From NCBI GenBank assembly GCA_044229975.1, contig JBGARZ010000005.1:32001-96000 (forward strand): a stretch of 64,000 bases of DNA. The letters are read 5' to 3'. Positions 34,897-47,666 of this stretch are shown here, in pieces; position 1 is the first letter of the stretch, and each line of letters starts with the position of its first letter. The notes beneath the pieces are model-generated. The model worked only from the letters and a program-made list of their open reading frames with translations, did no database searches and was not told the DNA's origin. The stretch comes from Polyangiales bacterium. Lineage in GTDB: Bacteria > Myxococcota_A > Polyangia > Polyangiales > Ga0077539. Position numbers and translations under genes: made by a program.

Positions 34897-35886
34897 ATGG
34901 CGTCGACCGCGAACCAAGTGACCACGGGCCCGCGCGAGCGTCCGCTCTTCGGCGTCAACCTGCCGTGGTTCTTCGGGTCTTACGGGCACGACCTCGCGCC
35001 CAACGAGCACCACCCCACCTGGGGTCACCGCTTCGACGCCGCCCTCGCCGAGCGCTCGCTCCAGTCGGCCCGCGCGATGGGCTTCGACGCCGTTCGCATC
35101 TGGCTCTGTGAGCACGCCGAAGGGGTCGTCACCCGCGACGGTCGCATCGACGCCGTGCACCCGGCCCTGCTCGCCAGCATCGACGCCCTCCAGGGCATCG
35201 CCGCGCGCCTCGGCCTCCGCGTCTACTGGACCCTCCTCGACGCCAACTCGTGGAAGCGCGAGGGCGACGCGCTCACCCACGCCATCGTCGTCGACCCCGA
35301 CGCCACCGCGCGCTTCGCCGAACGCATCGCGGCCCCCATCGCCCGCGCGCTCGACCCGTCGCTCGCCGTCGCGTTGGAGGTGCTCAACGAGCCCGAGGTG
35401 ATGACCCCCGAGTGCCTCGCTCCCACCGACTCCTCCGTCCCATGGACCACCATCGGCCGCGCGCTGCACACCATCGGCGACGCCATCCGCGCCGAGCGCC
35501 CCGCCATCCCGGTGACCGCCGGCACGATGCACGTCTTCCTCCCGCGCCTCTGGGCGAGCGGCGCCGCGCTCGACGCCATCGACGTGCACCTCTATCACCC
35601 CGACGGCGGCCTGCCTCCGCTCGCTCACCTCGCGGACTACGTGGGCGACCAGCGCATCGCGCGCGGGGAGGTTCCGCTCATCGCGGGCGAGTGCGGGATG
35701 CCCGATGGGGTCGACGTCGCCGAGCACGGGCGCCTCGCCAACTACCTGCACAACGCCGCGCGCAACGACTACCGCGCGGCCTTCCTGTGGCGCCTCGAAG
35801 GTCCGTTGGTGCGCCGCGACGACGAGGGTTCGCTGACCGACGCCGGGCACCGCGTGCGCGACACGCTGGGCCGGGGCGTGCCGTGA
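34897..35886 (+). CDS. glycoside hydrolase, clan GH-A (GH5-like)
   Basis: FGVNLPW, VRIWL, acid/base LNEPE, DVHLY, nucleophile AGECG, FLW. Confidence 0.75.
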   Translation: MASTANQVTTGPRERPLFGVNLPWFFGSYGHDLAPNEHHPTWGHRFDAALAERSLQSARAMGFDAVRIWLCEHAEGVVTRDGRIDAVHPALLASIDALQGIAARLGLRVYWTLLDANSWKREGDALTHAIVVDPDATARFAERIAAPIARALDPSLAVALEVLNEPEVMTPECLAPTDSSVPWTTIGRALHTIGDAIRAERPAIPVTAGTMHVFLPRLWASGAALDAIDVHLYHPDGGLPPLAHLADYVGDQRIARGEVPLIAGECGMPDGVDVAEHGRLANYLHNAARNDYRAAFLWRLEGPLVRRDDEGSLTDAGHRVRDTLGRGVP

Positions 35887-36689
35887 GCGCCAACTCGGTC
35901 GAGCGGTGGGATGTGTTCTGGCGGTGGGAGAGCTTCCGTCGGCGGTGCGACCCGGTAGACGCGCGCCGCTGGAAGCGCGACTCGCAGCGCGAGCTCTGGG
36001 AGCGCTTCGGTGACCGCGACCCGCTGGTGCTGGACGCGACGCTCGGGCTCGGCGACCACGCGCTCAACCTCTGCGAGCTGGGCTTCCGCACGGAGGGCTG
36101 CGACGGGAGCGCGCTGGCGTTGTCGCTCGCCCGCGAGATGCTGGCGCGGGAGGGCGCGCGGGTGGAGACCTTCGAGGCGCGGTGGGCCTCGCTGGGCGCG
36201 ACGCACGCGGGTCGCTACGGGCTGATCTTCCACGACGCGCTGCACTGGATCTACGAGCGCGACGAGCTGCTCGCGGCGCTGCGCGGACTGCACGCGGCGC
36301 TGGCGCCGGGCGGGGCGCTGGCGTTCTTCTTCGCGGAGGCGAAGAAGCCCGAGGAGGGGGAGGCGCTGCGGGTGATGCAGTGGGAGCTCGCGCGCCTGGT
36401 CGAGCACGAGGACGTGTGGTCGCACGAGCGCGACGGGACGCGGGTGACGTGCACGCGGCGCAACGTGGTGGGGGCGGACTACATCGATCAGGCGTACTCG
36501 TTTGCGGTGAGCGAGCCGGGTGGGGCCACGCGGGTGGAGGAGACGACGTTGCGCCGGGTGTACCGATGGGACTGGTTCGCGCTGGGCGGGGTGCTGCGCG
36601 AGGCGGGCTTCGTGGATGTGCGGTCGGAGCAGTGCCGCAACGCGCTCGGGGATGGCTACGCGCTCAACCTGGCGTACCGGGCTGGGTAA
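35883..36689 (+). CDS. class I SAM-dependent methyltransferase
   Basis: GTG 35883 overlapping upstream stop; VLDATLGLG, GCDGS, LAPGG. Confidence 0.8.
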   Translation: MSANSVERWDVFWRWESFRRRCDPVDARRWKRDSQRELWERFGDRDPLVLDATLGLGDHALNLCELGFRTEGCDGSALALSLAREMLAREGARVETFEARWASLGATHAGRYGLIFHDALHWIYERDELLAALRGLHAALAPGGALAFFFAEAKKPEEGEALRVMQWELARLVEHEDVWSHERDGTRVTCTRRNVVGADYIDQAYSFAVSEPGGATRVEETTLRRVYRWDWFALGGVLREAGFVDVRSEQCRNALGDGYALNLAYRAG

Positions 36690-36729
36690 CCGCGCGAGCT
36701 TCGACGCATGGCCCGCAATGCGCGCGTCT

Positions 36730-36820
36730 GCCCAACGGCTGGCCGCTGTGCCACCGCAGTGGGCGGGGTGGGGTGGTGATGAGTGGAGTGGGAGCGGTCG
36801 GCACCATCGGCTTGTTGGGC
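36730..36820 (-). other. attC: attC site 7 (91 bp)
   Basis: Minus strand GCCCAAC AAGCC GATGGTGC ... GCACAGC GGCCAGCC GTTGGGC. Confidence 0.9.
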
Positions 36821-36821
36821 A

Positions 36822-37520
36822 CTAGCCACTGCCATTGATGACTAGCACTTTGCGCCCCGTTCCGCCATCCGCTTCCCAGCCGTATTTCGTCACACCTCGG
36901 CGTCCCAAACACTCGCAAGTTGCGGTGCCGCTCGCCGTTGCGTTCATGAACTCAACGATCAGAAGACTCCGCAAGGCCATTCGGGACACCAAGCTGTCGC
37001 ACATTCGGCCAAGCGCCTCGCCGGAGTAGTATTGCAGTACCTTGCGACAGACGATCAGGTCGAACGGGCCCGTTTCGACTGAGGCGTCGGCAATGTCGCC
37101 TCGAACAAAGCGAATGGTCCCACCAGCACGATACGGCGGAGTCCATACGCACTGTTTCGCGAGCTTGCCTTCTCTGTAGGTGTCATACCGGTGCTCGCGA
37201 ACCGTTGGCGCCGCGCAGTTCGCTTGTAGACGCAAGAGCGCTACATCCGAGATGTCTAGCGCTGTGACCTCTGCTCCCATCGCGACAAAGTCGAGAGGTT
37301 CGATCGAGACACCGTTACCGGCAAAGAGAGCCCGAGACACTGGCGTCGATTCAAAGTACTCCCGCATTTGGAACGCCAACGAGTAGATGGGGAGTGAATC
37401 GCCCGCATGGCTCGCCCACCACTTGTTCCACCATTCAGGGTTGCGAACCTCCTCGGCGTGGTGGCGACCACCTGAGGTGGCCTCTCTTCCCGAGAACAGG
37501 CTACGGATGAACGAAAGCAT
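36822..37520 (-). CDS. cassette 7: class I SAM-dependent methyltransferase
   Basis: RBS gagga; LFAGNG, VTALDIS, GDIAD...FDLIVCRKVLQYY; stop abuts attC. Confidence 0.8.
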   Translation of the reverse strand: MLSFIRSLFSGREATSGGRHHAEEVRNPEWWNKWWASHAGDSLPIYSLAFQMREYFESTPVSRALFAGNGVSIEPLDFVAMGAEVTALDISDVALLRLQANCAAPTVREHRYDTYREGKLAKQCVWTPPYRAGGTIRFVRGDIADASVETGPFDLIVCRKVLQYYSGEALGRMCDSLVSRMALRSLLIVEFMNATASGTATCECLGRRGVTKYGWEADGGTGRKVLVINGSG

Positions 37521-37533
37521 GGTCCTCTGTATC

Positions 37534-37624
37534 GCCTAACGACTGGCCGATGTGCCGCCGCACCGGGCGCGGCGGGTTGGCAGTGGGTGAAGCGGGGGCG
37601 GTCGGCACCATCGGCTTGTTGGGC
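37534..37624 (-). other. attC: attC site 6 (91 bp)
   Basis: Minus strand GCCCAAC AAGCC GATGGTGC ... GCACATC GGCCAGTC GTTAGGC. Confidence 0.92.
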
Positions 37625-37647
37625 ACGTCAGGTCGCATGCGTCACAT

Positions 37648-38127
37648 TCACAGGTAATCAAAGAACCGGATCCACCAAGTGATTCGTCCGTCGTTGAGCG
37701 CGCGGTTCTTGCCGTCGTAGATCTCGCCGAGTTCGTCTGCTGGCACATATCTCCAGCCTCGCAGTTCGACCACTGCCCTGATTCTATCCACCGGGTAGTT
37801 TGTCAGAGTGTCCGGCACGGCGCTGTAGATCGTATAAAAGCGCCCGAAGTTCGAGAACCGCACCGCGATCTCGGGAGTGAGGGCTACGACGCCATTCGCG
37901 CGAAAGCTGTCCGGATGAAGTCGGCGCAGTTCGTCGTGAAAGGATGCGTCTTGCACATACCCATCGCGGTCAAACGGCAGATTGAGTTCATTGCGTAGAG
38001 TTTCCTGAATGCTCCCAACGCTTGCCGCGAGTGCGTCGTACGGGAAGGCCGCCCAATTCTCTCCGGGCACCTCGCAACCGACGGGGTCGTCAGAGTCGTC
38101 GAGCAGTTTTCGAAGCGCTGGATTCAC
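37648..38127 (-). CDS. cassette 6: hypothetical protein
   Basis: GTG 38127 just inside the core site; ends ...WWIRFFDYL before attC. Confidence 0.75.
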   Translation of the reverse strand: MNPALRKLLDDSDDPVGCEVPGENWAAFPYDALAASVGSIQETLRNELNLPFDRDGYVQDASFHDELRRLHPDSFRANGVVALTPEIAVRFSNFGRFYTIYSAVPDTLTNYPVDRIRAVVELRGWRYVPADELGEIYDGKNRALNDGRITWWIRFFDYL

Positions 38128-38135
38128 GGATACCT

Positions 38136-38226
38136 GCCCAACGACTGGCCGCTGTGCCGCCGCCACGTATCAGGTGACTGTTCCTCTGGCTGATTGGACG
38201 CGGTCGGCACCAGCGGCTTGTTAGGA
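38136..38226 (-). other. attC: attC site 5 (91 bp)
   Basis: Minus strand TCCTAAC AAGCC GCTGGTGC ... GCACAGC GGCCAGTC GTTGGGC. Confidence 0.9.
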
Positions 38227-38518
38227 ATGCTGAACCTTGCTGGCGACGCGATGGTGGCAGTGCCGGACGTGGGACGCAGGCCAACCGTGGTCGTTGCCGT
38301 GGTCGTTGCCGTGGTCGTTGCCGTGGTCGTTGCCGTGGTCGTCGCCGCGGCCGTCGCCCTCGCCGTCACTGCCCACTGCCTGGCCGTCACGTCGCTCGTC
38401 TCCCATCGCTCACAGTTCGCTGCTCGAAGACCGTTGTCCGTTGTCGGACGCTTGCTTCCTCGCCGATCGTGGCCCGATTCGTGCTCTTCGCAGGGCGCCG
38501 CTCGTCGCTCTCCGAGCT
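38227..38518 (-). other. cassette 5: no convincing gene; 12-bp tandem repeat; possible 61-aa His/Asp-rich peptide (38221..38406)
   Basis: ccgtggtcgttg x4 plus 2 variants at 38285-38356; bounded by matching GTTAGGA/TCCTAAC cores. Confidence 0.7.
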
Positions 38519-38609
38519 TCCTAACGGCTGGCCGATGTGCCGCCGCAATGAGCGGGAGATCCGTTCCTGAGGCTGAGTGCGAGCGGTCGGCACCATCGGC
38601 TTGTTGGGC
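38519..38609 (-). other. attC: attC site 4 (91 bp)
   Basis: Minus strand GCCCAAC AAGCC GATGGTGC ... GCACATC GGCCAGCC GTTAGGA. Confidence 0.92.
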
Positions 38610-38699
38610 ACGCCGCCCGCTGCCCTGTCCACGCGCATGTGCGACGTCACGCCATTGCTCTCCGTGAACTCCGTAGCGCCGGACCCAAGACGATCGGCA

Positions 38700-39251
38700 T
38701 CAGTCGCGCTTCCATAGCGAGAGGAATTCCGCGGCTACCACCAACGTTCGGCCGCTGTCGGAGAACCCGAATGCCCGTAGCTCGGGCCAATCCTTGACCA
38801 ATAGGAACTCCCTGTCCGATTCGCTGGATGGGTCGTCGTAGGGGACTTTGAGCACCAAGCTCTCACAAGGCCAGTTGGGCGCGATTCGACGGACCTTCCA
38901 TCCGTCCGGGGTGAAGGCCTTGAGCCCTCCCCCCCACAAGCCAGCAACGGGGATGCGCCGGCCGGCGAGCGGCCCGATGCCGACAACCGACACGGGGTAA
39001 GGGTCGTGCTCGCCCTCCGCGTTGCCGCTGTGGCCAGGTTCGTCGGCCAAGGTGTCGCCCGTCTTGGCGTCGACCACGGTCAGTCCGTCGTGGGTCAGCA
39101 CAACCAGCCACTCGGTGCCCGGTGCGAAACCCATCGCGACGGGCATCTCGAAAAATCTCTCCACCGACACCCGCGCCCAAGGGGGCGGCGGATTGACCCT
39201 CTGGCGACTTCGCCACTCTGCACGAATCTTTCGGATGCGCTCATTGGTCAT
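38700..39251 (-). CDS. cassette 4: hypothetical protein (beta-rich)
   Basis: 183-aa ORF filling the cassette; AGLWGGGL..TPDGW, AFGFSDSG. Confidence 0.75.
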   Translation of the reverse strand: MTNERIRKIRAEWRSRQRVNPPPPWARVSVERFFEMPVAMGFAPGTEWLVVLTHDGLTVVDAKTGDTLADEPGHSGNAEGEHDPYPVSVVGIGPLAGRRIPVAGLWGGGLKAFTPDGWKVRRIAPNWPCESLVLKVPYDDPSSESDREFLLVKDWPELRAFGFSDSGRTLVVAAEFLSLWKRD

Positions 39252-39316
39252 TGAGTCTTCGGCCCTGATCGAAGGGCCTTGTCGCTCTCACGCTGCCAAC
39301 CCGTGGGGCCGAGGCT

Positions 39317-39407
39317 GCCCAACGACTGGCCGATGTGCCGCCGCAGCGGGCGCGCCGGGTTGGCGGTGGATGAAGTGGGAGCGGTCGGCACCATCGGCTT
39401 GTTCGGC
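39317..39407 (-). other. attC: attC site 3 (91 bp)
   Basis: Minus strand GCCGAAC AAGCC GATGGTGC ... GCACATC GGCCAGTC GTTGGGC. Confidence 0.92.
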
Positions 39408-39441
39408 CAAAGTGGTCGCTGCGACGGCAAGATGGCAGCCA

Positions 39442-39831
39442 TCATGCAATCCAGCATTTTTCCGAGGTGATCTGCTGAACGCTGCCATCACGGCCGAACG
39501 CGACGAACCACGTCCCACCATCACCCAACCCACCGCTAGTTACGCAGCCGAACGAAATCTCAACCTCGTCCGATTCAAGCGGTTTCGCACTCAAGTGGTA
39601 TCCGTGAGCCTTGCCTGTGTAGAAGATCGTGTCGAGGTCGAGGCCAGCTGTAAGTTCGCTGTGAAGAAGTTTGCACGCCAAGATGTGAGTTTCGGTGTCT
39701 GCACACTGGAGAAAGAACGCAGTCACCTTCTCATCGCCAAGGAAGCCTCGCGCCACCGCCACCTCTTTCTCCCGCCGTGTCTTGGGTGTTTTGGTCTTCC
39801 GTCGCTTCACAGGGCGTCCCTCCACAAGCAT
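39442..39831 (-). CDS. cassette 3: hypothetical protein
   Basis: 129-aa ORF filling the cassette, lower GC; start uncertain. Confidence 0.65.
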   Translation of the reverse strand: MLVEGRPVKRRKTKTPKTRREKEVAVARGFLGDEKVTAFFLQCADTETHILACKLLHSELTAGLDLDTIFYTGKAHGYHLSAKPLESDEVEISFGCVTSGGLGDGGTWFVAFGRDGSVQQITSEKCWIA

Positions 39832-39909
39832 CCCGCTGCCAAGTCTGTGCTCGATCGCGGCGCGCTACCCAATCCTTACTTGCACGCAGCGGCACTCGTC
39901 GAGTCCGCT

Positions 39910-40000
39910 GTCGAACGGCCTGCCGATGTGCCGCCGCATCGGGTGCGACGGGTTGGCAGGGGGTGAAGCGGGGGCGGTCGGCACCATCGGCTTGTTAGAC
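39910..40000 (-). other. attC: attC site 2 (91 bp)
   Basis: Minus strand GTCTAAC AAGCC GATGGTGC ... GCACATC GGCAGGCC GTTCGAC. Confidence 0.9.
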
Positions 40001-40028
40001 CAACGGTATGTCATCTGGGTGTCGCTCG

Positions 40029-40529
40029 TCACTCGCCAGTCTCCATTGGGAGCAAAGGCGTTTCTGCCGAACGCCTGAAGTAGCCGGAAACGGCGGCGCC
40101 CGCGTTAGCGAAGAAGCGAGCGTCTTCCTCGTCATCCTCCGGCCGGGCAAGGCGCCACAGAGAGATTTGCCACTCCTGAAAAATGAAGGAAAAGCCGGGA
40201 TCGGTAATGGCACGATCAAATGGTGTGAAGATGTCGAGTGCAGGGATGAGGTCCGATGCTGGCGTCGCAAGCAGATCGTACCCTTGAAACATGACGGCGA
40301 CAGGGCCGCCACGGCACACCTCAATGAACTCCGCGGTGTCTGTCGATCGCTGATAGAACACCTGGAAGGAATTCCCGAACCAGGCATCGGCAAGTGGATC
40401 GTCCGCGAGCATGTTTTTCTGGAAGCTGACGGGAGTCGACCCCATAGCCGCTCGCACTTCCATCCGCGATGCACCCAATCTCACTGGACCGATGCCGACG
40501 AGGGGAATGATGTCAAAGCGAAGCTGCAT
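40029..40529 (-). CDS. cassette 2: hypothetical protein (immunity-protein-like N-terminus)
   Basis: FDIIPLVGIGPVRLGASRMEVRAAMG; acidic 166-aa ORF; RBS-like aggtga upstream. Confidence 0.75.
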   Translation of the reverse strand: MQLRFDIIPLVGIGPVRLGASRMEVRAAMGSTPVSFQKNMLADDPLADAWFGNSFQVFYQRSTDTAEFIEVCRGGPVAVMFQGYDLLATPASDLIPALDIFTPFDRAITDPGFSFIFQEWQISLWRLARPEDDEEDARFFANAGAAVSGYFRRSAETPLLPMETGE

Positions 40530-40649
40530 CGGCGTCCGTCACCTATCGTTTCGTGGCTCGCTACTCGTTGATCGCGGCACGCCAACCATGGCTCTCCGCT
40601 CTGGGATCGCGGCGCGGGTCTTGCTCTTCCGTAGGCCGCTGCTCTGGGC

Positions 40650-40740
40650 GTCTAACGGCTGGCCGGTGTGCCGCCGCACTGGCTGCGTTGGGTTGCCATT
40701 GAGCACATCGTGGGCGGTCGGCACCACCGGCTTGTTAGGA
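40650..40740 (-). other. attC: attC site 1 (91 bp)
   Basis: Minus strand TCCTAAC AAGCC GGTGGTGC ... GCACACC GGCCAGCC GTTAGAC. Confidence 0.9.
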
Positions 40741-40828
40741 GGCAGCCTGCGCCCCGCCTGCCCGCGCCTCGCGCCTTGCTCATCCGGCGTCAGTGGCTGC
40801 TTGTCGTCCATTGCTCCGTCACCCCGCC

Positions 40829-41146
40829 TTACGTCGCTTCTCGCGAGGCTCTCGCTCGGCCGCCGGACAGTTCAAGCCACTCGACGATCACGTCGGCCGT
40901 CTCGACGAGTGACGTCGTCGTGACGCGCCCTCCGTGCTTGTCCGTCTCGACAAGGAACGGGCACGCGCCGGAGCTCGACTCGATCTGGACTTCGCCCGGC
41001 CGACTTGGAATCCAGAAGAACCACAGGCCGTCGTCGTCTGCGGTATGTGTGACTGACAACTGCTCCCATTCCACGTTGGGCAACCGTGCTCGCACCAGCC
41101 CGATCAGTTCCTCGATGTCCGGCGTTATCGTGGAAACAGTCCCCAT
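40829..41146 (-). CDS. cassette 1: hypothetical protein (105 aa)
   Basis: RBS ggag, ATG 41146 MGTVSTITPDIEE...ADDDGLWFFW...QIESSSGACPFLVE. Confidence 0.75.
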   Translation of the reverse strand: MGTVSTITPDIEELIGLVRARLPNVEWEQLSVTHTADDDGLWFFWIPSRPGEVQIESSSGACPFLVETDKHGGRVTTTSLVETADVIVEWLELSGGRARASREAT

Positions 41147-41226
41147 TACTCCACCCGCACGCGGCTTGAACCCGATGGGAGACTTTCTCGTTCCAGACTG
41201 CCTCGAACCCTCGCCAGTGTCGCGCC

Positions 41227-41245
41227 GCCTAACATCTCGTTCACC
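41227..41245 (-). other. candidate attI simple site
   Basis: Minus strand GGTGAAC-GAGAT-GTTAGGC (L box, 5-nt spacer, R box); core matches R'' of attC1 (TCCTAAC). Confidence 0.6.
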
Positions 41246-41281
41246 CCGCGCCCCATTGCCGAATCCCGTCTTTGGCGCTGC

Positions 41282-41357
41282 TCGCCCGCTTGCTACCCAA
41301 CTCCATATCCCCATTCGCGTAGTTCGCCCGCTCGCTGCCCAATTCCATAACCCCATT
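41282..41357. repeat. imperfect 34-bp direct repeat x2, 42-bp period
   Basis: tcgcccgcttgctacccaactccatatccccatt / tcgcccgctcgctgcccaattccataaccccatt. Confidence 0.85.
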
Positions 41358-41667
41358 TCGGCGCTCTTCGCCAGCCTCTCCTCTCCTCCGCCGCGTCGCC
41401 CTCCTCCCGACCCGCGCCGCGACGGCCTCGCCCCGCAGCTCGAATCCACCCGAGTTCGTCACGGCGCTGAGCTCGCGGCCCGGCGTGGCGACGTCGACCT
41501 CCCCCGACGCCCTCCGCACGAAGCTCCCCGGCGCCTCGACCCGCTCACGAGTCCACCCTCCAGCCCGCCGTCCACCACGCCGCCCAGGCCGCAGCCATCG
41601 ACCAGCGCCGCCTGCCATACCCCTGCCACACCCCTTCCCCGCCCCTTCCCCACCTCCAACGCCCCTC

Positions 41668-41796
41668 GTCATCCCCGACCTGCACCAGCGCCCCTCCCCG
41701 ATGACCCACGGTCATCCCCGCCCCGCATCTCCGCGACCTCCCCATGACCCGCCGTCATCCCCGACCAGCACCCACGCTCCCTTCGACCGCGCCGAC
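41668..41796. repeat. degenerate C-rich 43-bp tandem repeat x3
   Basis: gtcatccccg at 41668, 41711 and 41754; atgaccc recurs in units 1 and 2. Confidence 0.75.
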
Positions 41797-41889
41797 CCAT
41801 CGGACACCTGCGTTCGCGCTCCCTTCTCATGGCGCTTGCCTATCGCCAGTCCCACCAGAGACAACCGGCGATCAAGGGAGGTTATGTTC

Positions 41890-42780
41890 ATGGGGAAGAA
41901 GAACGTTCCAACCAACGCTCCGGGTCATGCAGCGGGCGGCGACGGCGCGCCCCCGGTCGGCGACGCGCAGGCCGCGTACGAGTCGCGCAAGGCCGCGTGG
42001 AAGGCCCTCGGCGGCGTCGAGCTCGGTCCGCCGCGCGTCAACCTCGGCTTCGTCACGGCGCGGGTGCTCCAGATCGGCCGCGCGCTCGCGGAGCCCGGCA
42101 CGCTCGCATCCTTCGACGCGCTCGCCGCCGTGCCGCTGGCCGACGCATCCCCCTACGACGCAGGCGCCGTGCGCCGGCTCCCGGTCATCGCCCTGGCCCT
42201 GTGGCACGCGCGCTACTGCTACCTCACGGCCTCGGCGCAGGCGACGACCGTCGCGCTCCCGCCCGAGACCGTCGCGGCCGCCACGAAGCTACGCGAGGTG
42301 ATGCTCCGCGTCGTGGCCTACCACTGCGTCGACGCCAACAACCCCGACGACAAGGTCGCCGCCGACCTCGACTCCATCCGCGCGGTCGAGGGCCCTCGCT
42401 ATCTCGACCTCGCCACCGACCTCTCGCGCCTCGCGGCCTACTACCGCGACCCTCGCTGGCTCCCGGTGTTCACCACCGATACGCGGCACTTCCGCGCGTC
42501 CGACGGCGAGGCCGCCGAGAAGGCCGCGGCCGACATCCTCGCGCGGCTGCACCAGCGCACCGACGAGGCAGCGACGTGGCTCGTCGAGCTCTACCGCGGC
42601 TGGGCCGACCTCCAGCGCACCTACGACGTCGTGCGGCGCGGGGCGAGCTTCGTGTTCTGGGGCGACGAGGCGAAGGTGCCGCCGCTCGGGTCGCTCCGAC
42701 CGGCGGCGCGCAAGGCGACCAGGGCCGGGGAGACGGAAGAAGACGAAGACCCGATCACCCCTCCCCCGCCGACGACGTGA
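41890..42780 (+). CDS. hypothetical, predicted all-alpha protein (296 aa); not an integrase
   Basis: RBS gggagg 41876-41881; host-like codon usage; no HxxR..Y tyrosine-recombinase motifs. Confidence 0.8.
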   Translation: MGKKNVPTNAPGHAAGGDGAPPVGDAQAAYESRKAAWKALGGVELGPPRVNLGFVTARVLQIGRALAEPGTLASFDALAAVPLADASPYDAGAVRRLPVIALALWHARYCYLTASAQATTVALPPETVAAATKLREVMLRVVAYHCVDANNPDDKVAADLDSIRAVEGPRYLDLATDLSRLAAYYRDPRWLPVFTTDTRHFRASDGEAAEKAAADILARLHQRTDEAATWLVELYRGWADLQRTYDVVRRGASFVFWGDEAKVPPLGSLRPAARKATRAGETEEDEDPITPPPPTT

Positions 42781-47393: not shown

Positions 47394-47666
47394 GAAAAGA
47401 TGTCCGTACCGCGCAGACCGTGGGAGCGTACAGAACCCCTTGGACACGCCAAGGTGGGAGCCGGGTATCGCGACTTAAGGCTTCCCGGTGAAAGATCCGG
47501 GCCTGCACACCGCCACGAGGTTTAGCTCCCGGGTTCGTGAAAAAAGAGGGATTTTGTACGCGACCTTCACCTGTCCGCGCAGAGGGACGATCGCTACCGT
47601 GAGCCTTCGCGCCGCGCACTTCAAGGCTGCCGAAAAAAGATTCTTCGGCGTACTCTTCGCCGCGCG

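Follow-up and report, generated by a model that had tools for sequence, protein, structure and literature searches.

The stretch of DNA examined here (64,000 nucleotides from a Polyangiales bacterium, referred to as the window) carries an array of seven integron cassettes with a likely attI site at its head and, behind that, a decayed fragment of intI, the integron integrase gene. The array is probably the relic of a complete integron, one that the single intact integrase (IntI) of the genome, encoded on contig C4, could still work in trans. The best-supported account, as far as sequence comparison can take it, is that an intI-attI platform would have settled at this site, captured cassettes as circles and lost its intI. 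The surviving IntI likely moved cassettes between arrays in trans, as suggested by cassettes shared between arrays and by a head that is far better conserved than the gene next to it. As a mechanism this could have run as follows: an intI-attI platform would have reached several unrelated chromosomal sites; each copy would have taken up circular cassettes at attI, after which its intI would have been deleted in part and decayed; cassettes would have passed between platforms via the surviving IntI; and occasional exchange in the near-identical arms of the attC sites may have reshuffled attC interiors, leaving core pairing undisturbed. The original prediction for this region dealt with the cassettes and their pairing. 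It missed the attI and the intI remnant, which explain how the array arrived.

The features are listed below. The top strand of attC is the minus strand of the window, and cassette coordinates are read accordingly; all seven attC are on this strand, 91 nt each, and belong to family D1. The 5′ core of each cassette is followed by the inverse core (R″) of its own attC, and ORF denotes an open reading frame.

41391..41630, plus strand (divergent from the array): decayed, frameshifted intI fragment, in which approximately codons 162-211 and 240-268 are matched
41227..41382, minus strand: likely attI, with R core GTTAGGC (41233-41227), spacer GAGAT (5 nt) and L-like box GGTGAAC (41245-41239)
40656..41232, minus strand: cassette 1, 577 bp, GTTAGGC and R″ TCCTAAC; ORF 40829-41146 (105 aa); attC 40650-40740
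39916..40655, minus strand: cassette 2, 740 bp, GTTAGAC and GTCTAAC; ORF 40029-40529 (166 aa); attC 39910-40000
39323..39915, minus strand: cassette 3, 593 bp, GTTCGAC and GCCGAAC; ORF 39442-39831 (129 aa); attC 39317-39407
38525..39322, minus strand: cassette 4, 798 bp, GTTGGGC and GCCCAAC; ORF 38700-39251 (183 aa); attC 38519-38609, its interior unlike those of homologous cassettes
38142..38524, minus strand: cassette 5, 383 bp, GTTAGGA and TCCTAAC; no convincing gene; attC 38136-38226
37540..38141, minus strand: cassette 6, 602 bp, GTTGGGC and GCCCAAC; ORF 37648-38127 (159 aa); attC 37534-37624
36736..37539, minus strand: cassette 7, 804 bp, GTTAGGC and GCCCAAC; ORF 36822-37520 (232 aa); attC 36730-36820

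A decayed intI and the integrons of the genome

No intact integrase lies within the window. The fragment next to the array was recognised at the DNA level: it is 73-76% identical to intI, and its best non-self blastn match in the 10 Mb genome is the intact gene on C4 (73% over 149 nt, E 7e-16; 74% over 89 nt). It also stands out against shuffled sequences (z = 12-15) and in an nhmmer search (E 5.5e-10), and a reversed-genome control gave no match. Both its 5′ half and the IntI-specific insertion have been lost, which is why the protein profile (TIGR02249) did not report it. Past 41630 (41631-41890) homology to intI is not significant (z at most 2.3). The divergent ORF at 41889-42780 was considered as an adjacent integrase and rejected: it has no family match and is present in a single copy in the genome.

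Genome-wide, one IntI scores above the TIGR02249 cut-off (414.8 bits). It is encoded on C4 together with its own array, and its catalytic residues are intact (R133, K158, H264, R267, H290, Y299), as is the IntI insertion. The attC profile gave 43 genome-wide matches at E<0.1, which fall into 10 loci, and seven of these loci begin with a common type of head: a 7-nt box, a 5-nt spacer and a GTT core, ahead of which come repeats that carry core-like half-sites. At the end of contig C2 there is an eighth attI-like head. It may be that of array C23a, which has its own start at the end of a contig; loci C8 and C39 have no attI-like head. Traces of intI accompany several heads besides that of the window. 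The C28 head has an intI remnant beside it that begins at nearly the same codon as the window remnant, all that the C14 and C2b heads retain is non-coding sequence from downstream of the intI stop (E 5e-3 and E 3e-4, respectively), and C19 resembles C14 in this 3′ flank region (67% over 394 nt).

The head of the array

Beside its L-like box, spacer and core, the window head contains two 42-nt repeats (41272-41313 and 41314-41355) with core-like half-sites. Two other arrays of the genome have heads that match it at 92% and 88% identity, and the window, C2a and C23b heads are mutually 88-95% identical. The same L-spacer-R motif directly adjoins intact intI in G014 and at locus L076, and the repeat part of the head matches the intI-side attI piece of relative G002 at 51 of 56 positions. 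As an independent test, a profile made from seven intI-adjacent sites and no others gave 12 genome-wide matches at E<10, all of them at the eight heads; the window head was its top match within the window (E 0.01, a weak match that corresponds to E 1.4 genome-wide). The window head is called a likely attI because of this homology to intI-adjacent sites and the profile test.

These findings bear on a different origin, in which a cassette would have been inserted at a secondary site (attG) and the array would have grown at attC without any platform. The route is an established one (10.1101/2022.09.11.507474, in part), and it seems to operate in this genome, where a candidate secondary-site insertion is found on C8 (approximately 35080-36308, L018): a single cassette with perfect pairing (GTTAGAC/GTCTAAC) and no head. 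For the window array, however, it is largely refuted and very improbable: the head is homologous to intI-adjacent attI, and 160 bp behind it comes the intI fragment, divergently oriented as expected.

Another conserved element was noticed in the surroundings of these heads. A TTGAC(A/G) box, with a TAG/TAC-rich hexamer 18-19 nt further on, lies on the cassette strand in relatives, some 70 bp beyond the stop codon of intI; the box is also found 290-420 bp upstream of heads C14, C19 and C2b and in Sorangium, and is not clearly present in the window. It could be a promoter that fires back through intI into the array.

Core pairing and cassette boundaries

In its circular form a cassette has a closed attC. 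IntI opens the circle between G and TT for insertion at attI, so that the six bases at the 5′ end of the cassette partner its own R″. The original prediction listed seven such core pairs, four perfect and three with a single mismatch, and the list proved exact on recheck (three mismatches in total). The pairing also holds up against shuffling: over all 5,040 possible re-pairings the mean is 9.1 mismatches, 24 re-pairings tie with the observed three and none is lower (P = 0.005). When each R″ is instead set against the R′ physically next to it in the window array, there are nine mismatches and one perfect pair out of seven. The other arrays of the genome behave in the same way: 25 of 31 cassettes pair perfectly, with 6 mismatches against a permutation mean of 34 and none of 200,000 shuffles as good, in a set that is not fully independent, as it includes near-duplicate cassettes and an IS91-like cassette (IS, insertion sequence). 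In relatives, 27 of 36 cassettes pair perfectly, with 10 mismatches against 47 by permutation and none of 50,000 shuffles as good, and in-array hybrid pairing is perfect in 7 of 30 cases. Both sets exclude cassettes without a recognisable end and keep near-duplicates. Since GTTGGGC alone makes up 20 of the 39 cores genome-wide, many of the perfect matches carry little information. The original prediction also pointed to the unusual GTTC variant common to both ends of cassette 3. All three GTTC-starting cassettes of this genome do have GAAC in the inverse core, but in relatives two cassettes with GAAC there do not start with GTTC.

That the units are integron cassettes bounded at G|TT is supported by the pairing, by the attC folds and by the recurrence of cassettes 4, 5 and 6 elsewhere. 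An origin from a tandemly duplicated repeat that later diverged, with the pairing arising by chance, was already doubted in the original prediction. Near-duplicate tandem cassettes do exist elsewhere (96.8% identical in array C23a, L013:1-1111; 98% in G002), but the seven bodies in the window are unrelated, with no mutual similarity at E<=0.01, and their pairing beats the shuffles, so that this origin is refuted and retains next to no probability.

The broader claim that the pairing records real recombination events is not supported. Core complementarity is what textbooks use to define an integron cassette, and nothing new by itself: the attC that belongs to a cassette is the one present in its circular form, the crossover falls between G and TT, and every cassette array should show the pattern, which is not unusual (PMC2674596, in part). 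Complementarity between R′ and R″ of attC has been described (PMC5027507, in part), as have chimeric attC sites within arrays (PMC4889954, in part). The pairing neither dates nor proves individual acts of IntI, because both cores also stay together when the crossover falls at any point from R″ to R′, inside the attC arms. What it does provide is a good check on the correctness of cassette boundaries.

Structure of the attC sites

The attC sites resemble known ones (PMC2674596, PMC5027507 and PMC3053210, each in part) in their G|TT boundaries, R″/R′ and L″/L′ boxes and top-strand genes. Their length of 91 nt is inside the known range of 57-141 nt, and the bottom strand forms a hairpin with extrahelical bases as in known attC; the first of these bases is C, in place of the usual G (PMC5027507, in part). 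AAC and GTT are invariant in all seven sites, with some flanking bases off the RYYYAAC/GTTRRRY consensus, and several cores depart from GTTRRRY (GTTC-, -GGA), unlike consensus integron cores. In the minimum-energy fold of the bottom strand, six of the seven attC form an R box, an unpaired spacer, an L box and extrahelical bases; in attC7 (36730-36820) the L box is unformed. Folding each attC in its reconstructed circular form, as the original prediction had proposed, gave a structure more stable than the in-array hybrid in six of seven cases, cassette 7 being the exception. One top-strand gene lies upstream of its own attC in six of the seven cassettes, cassette 5 having no ORF, and GC content goes from about 72% in the flanks to 56-69% inside the array.

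The L″ box of attC usually holds an ATG, the frame of which stays open through attC into the next cassette (e.g. 39317-39407) and ends in a 4-nt overlap with the starts of cassettes 4 and 6. Across 56 cassettes, the possible coupling of this ORF to the next gene came in the three frames to 11, 11 and 5 exact overlaps and to 17, 26 and 11 near overlaps.

Cassettes in other contexts and exchange within attC

Two outcomes had been named as telling against the original prediction: shuffled core pairings that score as well as the real ones, and cassettes confined to a single context. Neither came about, and cassettes 4, 5 and 6 do occur elsewhere with the same cores. Cassette 4 has a 91% copy in array C23b of the same genome, and a homolog of it comes first behind an intact intI at locus L076. 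Array C23a has cassettes 5 and 6 side by side as well, flanked there by other neighbours, with homology that stops at G|TT; cassette 6 is 93% identical to its copy there and has a further copy (94.5%) in relative G001, behind a different upstream attC interior. Altogether, different arrays of this genome have five long cassette matches in common (85-99%).

Cassette 4 and its 91% copy are identical up to R″, and their attC interiors match at 12 of 36 positions, where the background is 22 +/- 6. One exchange or more away from G|TT is indicated by this. In eight pairs whose bodies share 87% identity or more (a fused case was dropped), own attC interiors match at 36, 32, 27, 26, 25, 21, 19 and 12 of 36 positions. 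Such values suggest that there was occasional exchange inside the attC arms, and the middle ones could be neutral drift. It is then conceivable, if improbable, that the array owes its present order and content chiefly to homologous recombination or conversion between attC arms and not to IntI, a process that is compatible with a platform origin and may act together with it. The arms are near-invariant across the 33 genome sites of 91 nt, core pairing would be kept because such crossovers fall between R″ and R′, and interiors match at 12, 19 and 21 of 36 positions (background 21-22) for bodies that are 91%, 87% and 94% identical. However, other pairs keep their interiors (36, 36, 32 and 30 of 36), and 25-27 of 36 could be drift; arm recombination can neither put a cassette at attI nor create complementarity; and a downstream cassette does not take the upstream interior along with it (on average about 22 of 36 positions match, over 8 pairs at >=87%). 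Given this last result, top-strand R″ x R″ recombination is not supported as a source of the swapped interiors either.

A 2.7-kb IS91-like element on C19 (L010:7345-10055; also at the L011 end, L054, L196 and L197) behaves as a cassette. It carries genes for a tyrosine recombinase (PF00589) and a Y2 transposase (PF04986/PF14319), starts with GTTGGAC and has at its other end a hairpin resembling attC, with GTCCAAC (z -4.55), and it lies directly behind attI (C19, C2 end, G001, L197) or attC (L196). ISShvi3 is a similar case (PMC9229058, in part). Hypothetically, one-ended rolling-circle transposition of this element from attI could be what moves platforms. The near-duplicated cassette of C23a also follows the element on C19 (99%), which may mean that the two were truly transferred together or may come from the assembly of a repeat.

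A frozen relic or an array still in use

The main rival to the account of a platform that settled, captured cassettes and could still be worked in trans departs from it only on later activity. It holds that the array was built long ago by its own IntI and has been inert since, with the shared cassettes coming from whole-platform duplication; this is possible but rather unlikely. It fits with shared cassettes that are only 91-93% identical, with window, C2a and C23b heads similar enough to imply a recent common ancestor, with a window head that differs from the C4 attI and with the misfolded attC7. It does not fit well with the conservation of the head while the adjacent intI is heavily decayed (73-74%), which suggests that selection was kept on the head, with the different neighbours of the cassette 5 and 6 pair in C23a, where homology ends at G|TT, or with the canonical folds of the other six attC.

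Several points weigh against a platform that was left here and is still served from C4. First, the C2a and C23b heads have no detectable intI remnant, platform flanks are unrelated from site to site, and no transposase was found among five flanking ORFs scanned, in a survey that did not search systematically for element ends. Second, the window head is only weakly similar to the C4 attI, which belongs to the intact IntI (18 of 20 bases; genome-wide E 1.4), and may not be a substrate today. Third, the shared cassettes are old, given their 91-93% identity, and could descend from duplication of a whole array. The assembly is 93% complete in 39 contigs, so that a second intI could be missing from it. 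Finally, a scan of 36600-42000 for a cassette promoter (Pc) of the sigma-70 type, which may not suit this lineage, found none (0.6 expected by chance).

Relation to known integrons

The array is a CALIN, an attC cluster with no integron-integrase, in the sense of Cury et al. 2016 (PMC4889954, in part): it has at least two attC and no intact intI nearby, with an IntI elsewhere in the genome. It is not a bare CALIN, from which it differs by its attI-like head and DNA-level intI remnant, and it is not a complete integron either, for it has a likely attI but intI only as a fragment, the intact gene being on C4. In the same study, IntI pseudogenes were found near 15 of 279 CALINs by protein profile, unknown attI sites were not searchable, intI loss is one of four proposed CALIN origins, and most CALINs have no recognisable intI pseudogene.

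Two other known arrangements are close. With sedentary chromosomal integrons such as that of Xanthomonas at ilvD (10.1101/2025.06.18.660453, in part) the window system shares attC sites that are uniform and particular to the lineage, intI genes often put out of action (by frameshift, stop or deletion), ORF-less cassettes and extra CALINs. It differs in having no fixed locus, its platforms being in unrelated contexts within and between genomes, and in that distant arrays of this genome carry attI-like heads of their own. With CALINs and solitary attC sites that have no integron-integrase (SALINs) derived from attG (10.1101/2022.09.11.507474, in part) it shares the presence of cassettes away from an intact intI, and the single cassette of C8 fits this class; the window array differs in having a platform.

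The array is a known kind of element, and it is the multi-platform organisation that is worth following up. Literature searches over the main text of open-access papers turned up no account of a single genome with several attI-headed orphan arrays, and none of integrons in Polyangiales. At the DNA level, most orphan arrays of one genome begin at attI-like sites, several of them with intI relics, and relatives repeat the pattern. Tentatively, and with the balance slightly on the side of doubt, this could be a distributed integron, in which a Polyangiales-type platform would repeatedly colonise new sites and shed its intI, leaving many live attI-headed arrays (eight here) fed in trans by one integrase. 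If so, many CALINs would be active platforms with intI relics invisible to protein profiles, and not secondary-site insertions. If the heads are live, one integrase would manage many expression platforms, and current tools would undercount myxobacterial integrons. The idea is directly testable, as closed genomes of cultured Sorangium strains show the same multi-head pattern.

Integrons of relatives and of Sorangium

The closest IntI proteins come from Polyangiales, Sorangium included (71-85%). In a first batch of 20 relative loci, picked by attC or intI matches, 13 have a head and 7 of those 13 have no intI beside it; at other loci intI is frameshifted, truncated or internally deleted. A second batch of 20 loci, some on short contigs, was picked by attC matches and scanned with a head profile made from the heads of this genome: there was a head in 11, intI coding fragments in 6 and a whole intI in none. 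Three complete Sorangium genomes have 2, 3 and 7 attI-region matches against 1, 2 and 2 full-length intI, plus several fragments. Over 31 genomes, an attI pattern that allowed one mismatch gave too much noise for a count.

The Sorangium intI platform is located inside a multi-copy block with a gene for an extracytoplasmic function (ECF) sigma factor and a RadC/JAB gene (L075:7755-9037, L162-L181), an arrangement that suggests carriage on an island. Spread of the platform via such a block was rejected for the present genome, the only RadC-like match of which is on C25, away from any head. Across genera the similarity of the intI 3′ flanks runs out some 70-80 bp beyond the stop, and few pairs match for longer. 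The methyltransferase gene that flanks the array in the window was not found at E 1e-30 in any of eight congeners. In G002 (L041:85-1325) an insertion of about 1.25 kb, IS-like by eye, splits the attI beside an intact intI.

Cassette contents and other features

Comparison of the six cassette proteins with Pfam, NCBIfam, PADLOC and PHROGs gave a clear fold only for cassette 7, a SAM-dependent methyltransferase fold (PF13649, E 2e-6). The cassette 1 protein has no match in Pfam, NCBIfam, PADLOC, PHROG or PDB, and that of cassette 3 had no family match in library scans. For the cassette 2 protein, Atlas matches are hypothetical proteins, with one strongly scored lead to a DUF7738/Knr4-Smi1-like protein.

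Cassette 5 has a T-poor top strand (9% T) and a 12-nt tandem repeat. It belongs to a family with seven aligned copies in three genomes, in which the top strand has 7-10% T, the ends are conserved and the repeat middle is variable. Several copies are at array fronts in G002 and G003, and six of the seven short bodies are equal in length modulo 3. A conserved RNA structure was considered for cassette 5 and found no support, as the covariation term was unfavourable (+1.08) and two-sided change was seen in 3 of 38 pairs. The only match in an Rfam scan of the window was an ordinary 6S RNA at 47402-47588 on the minus strand (RF00013, 57 bits).

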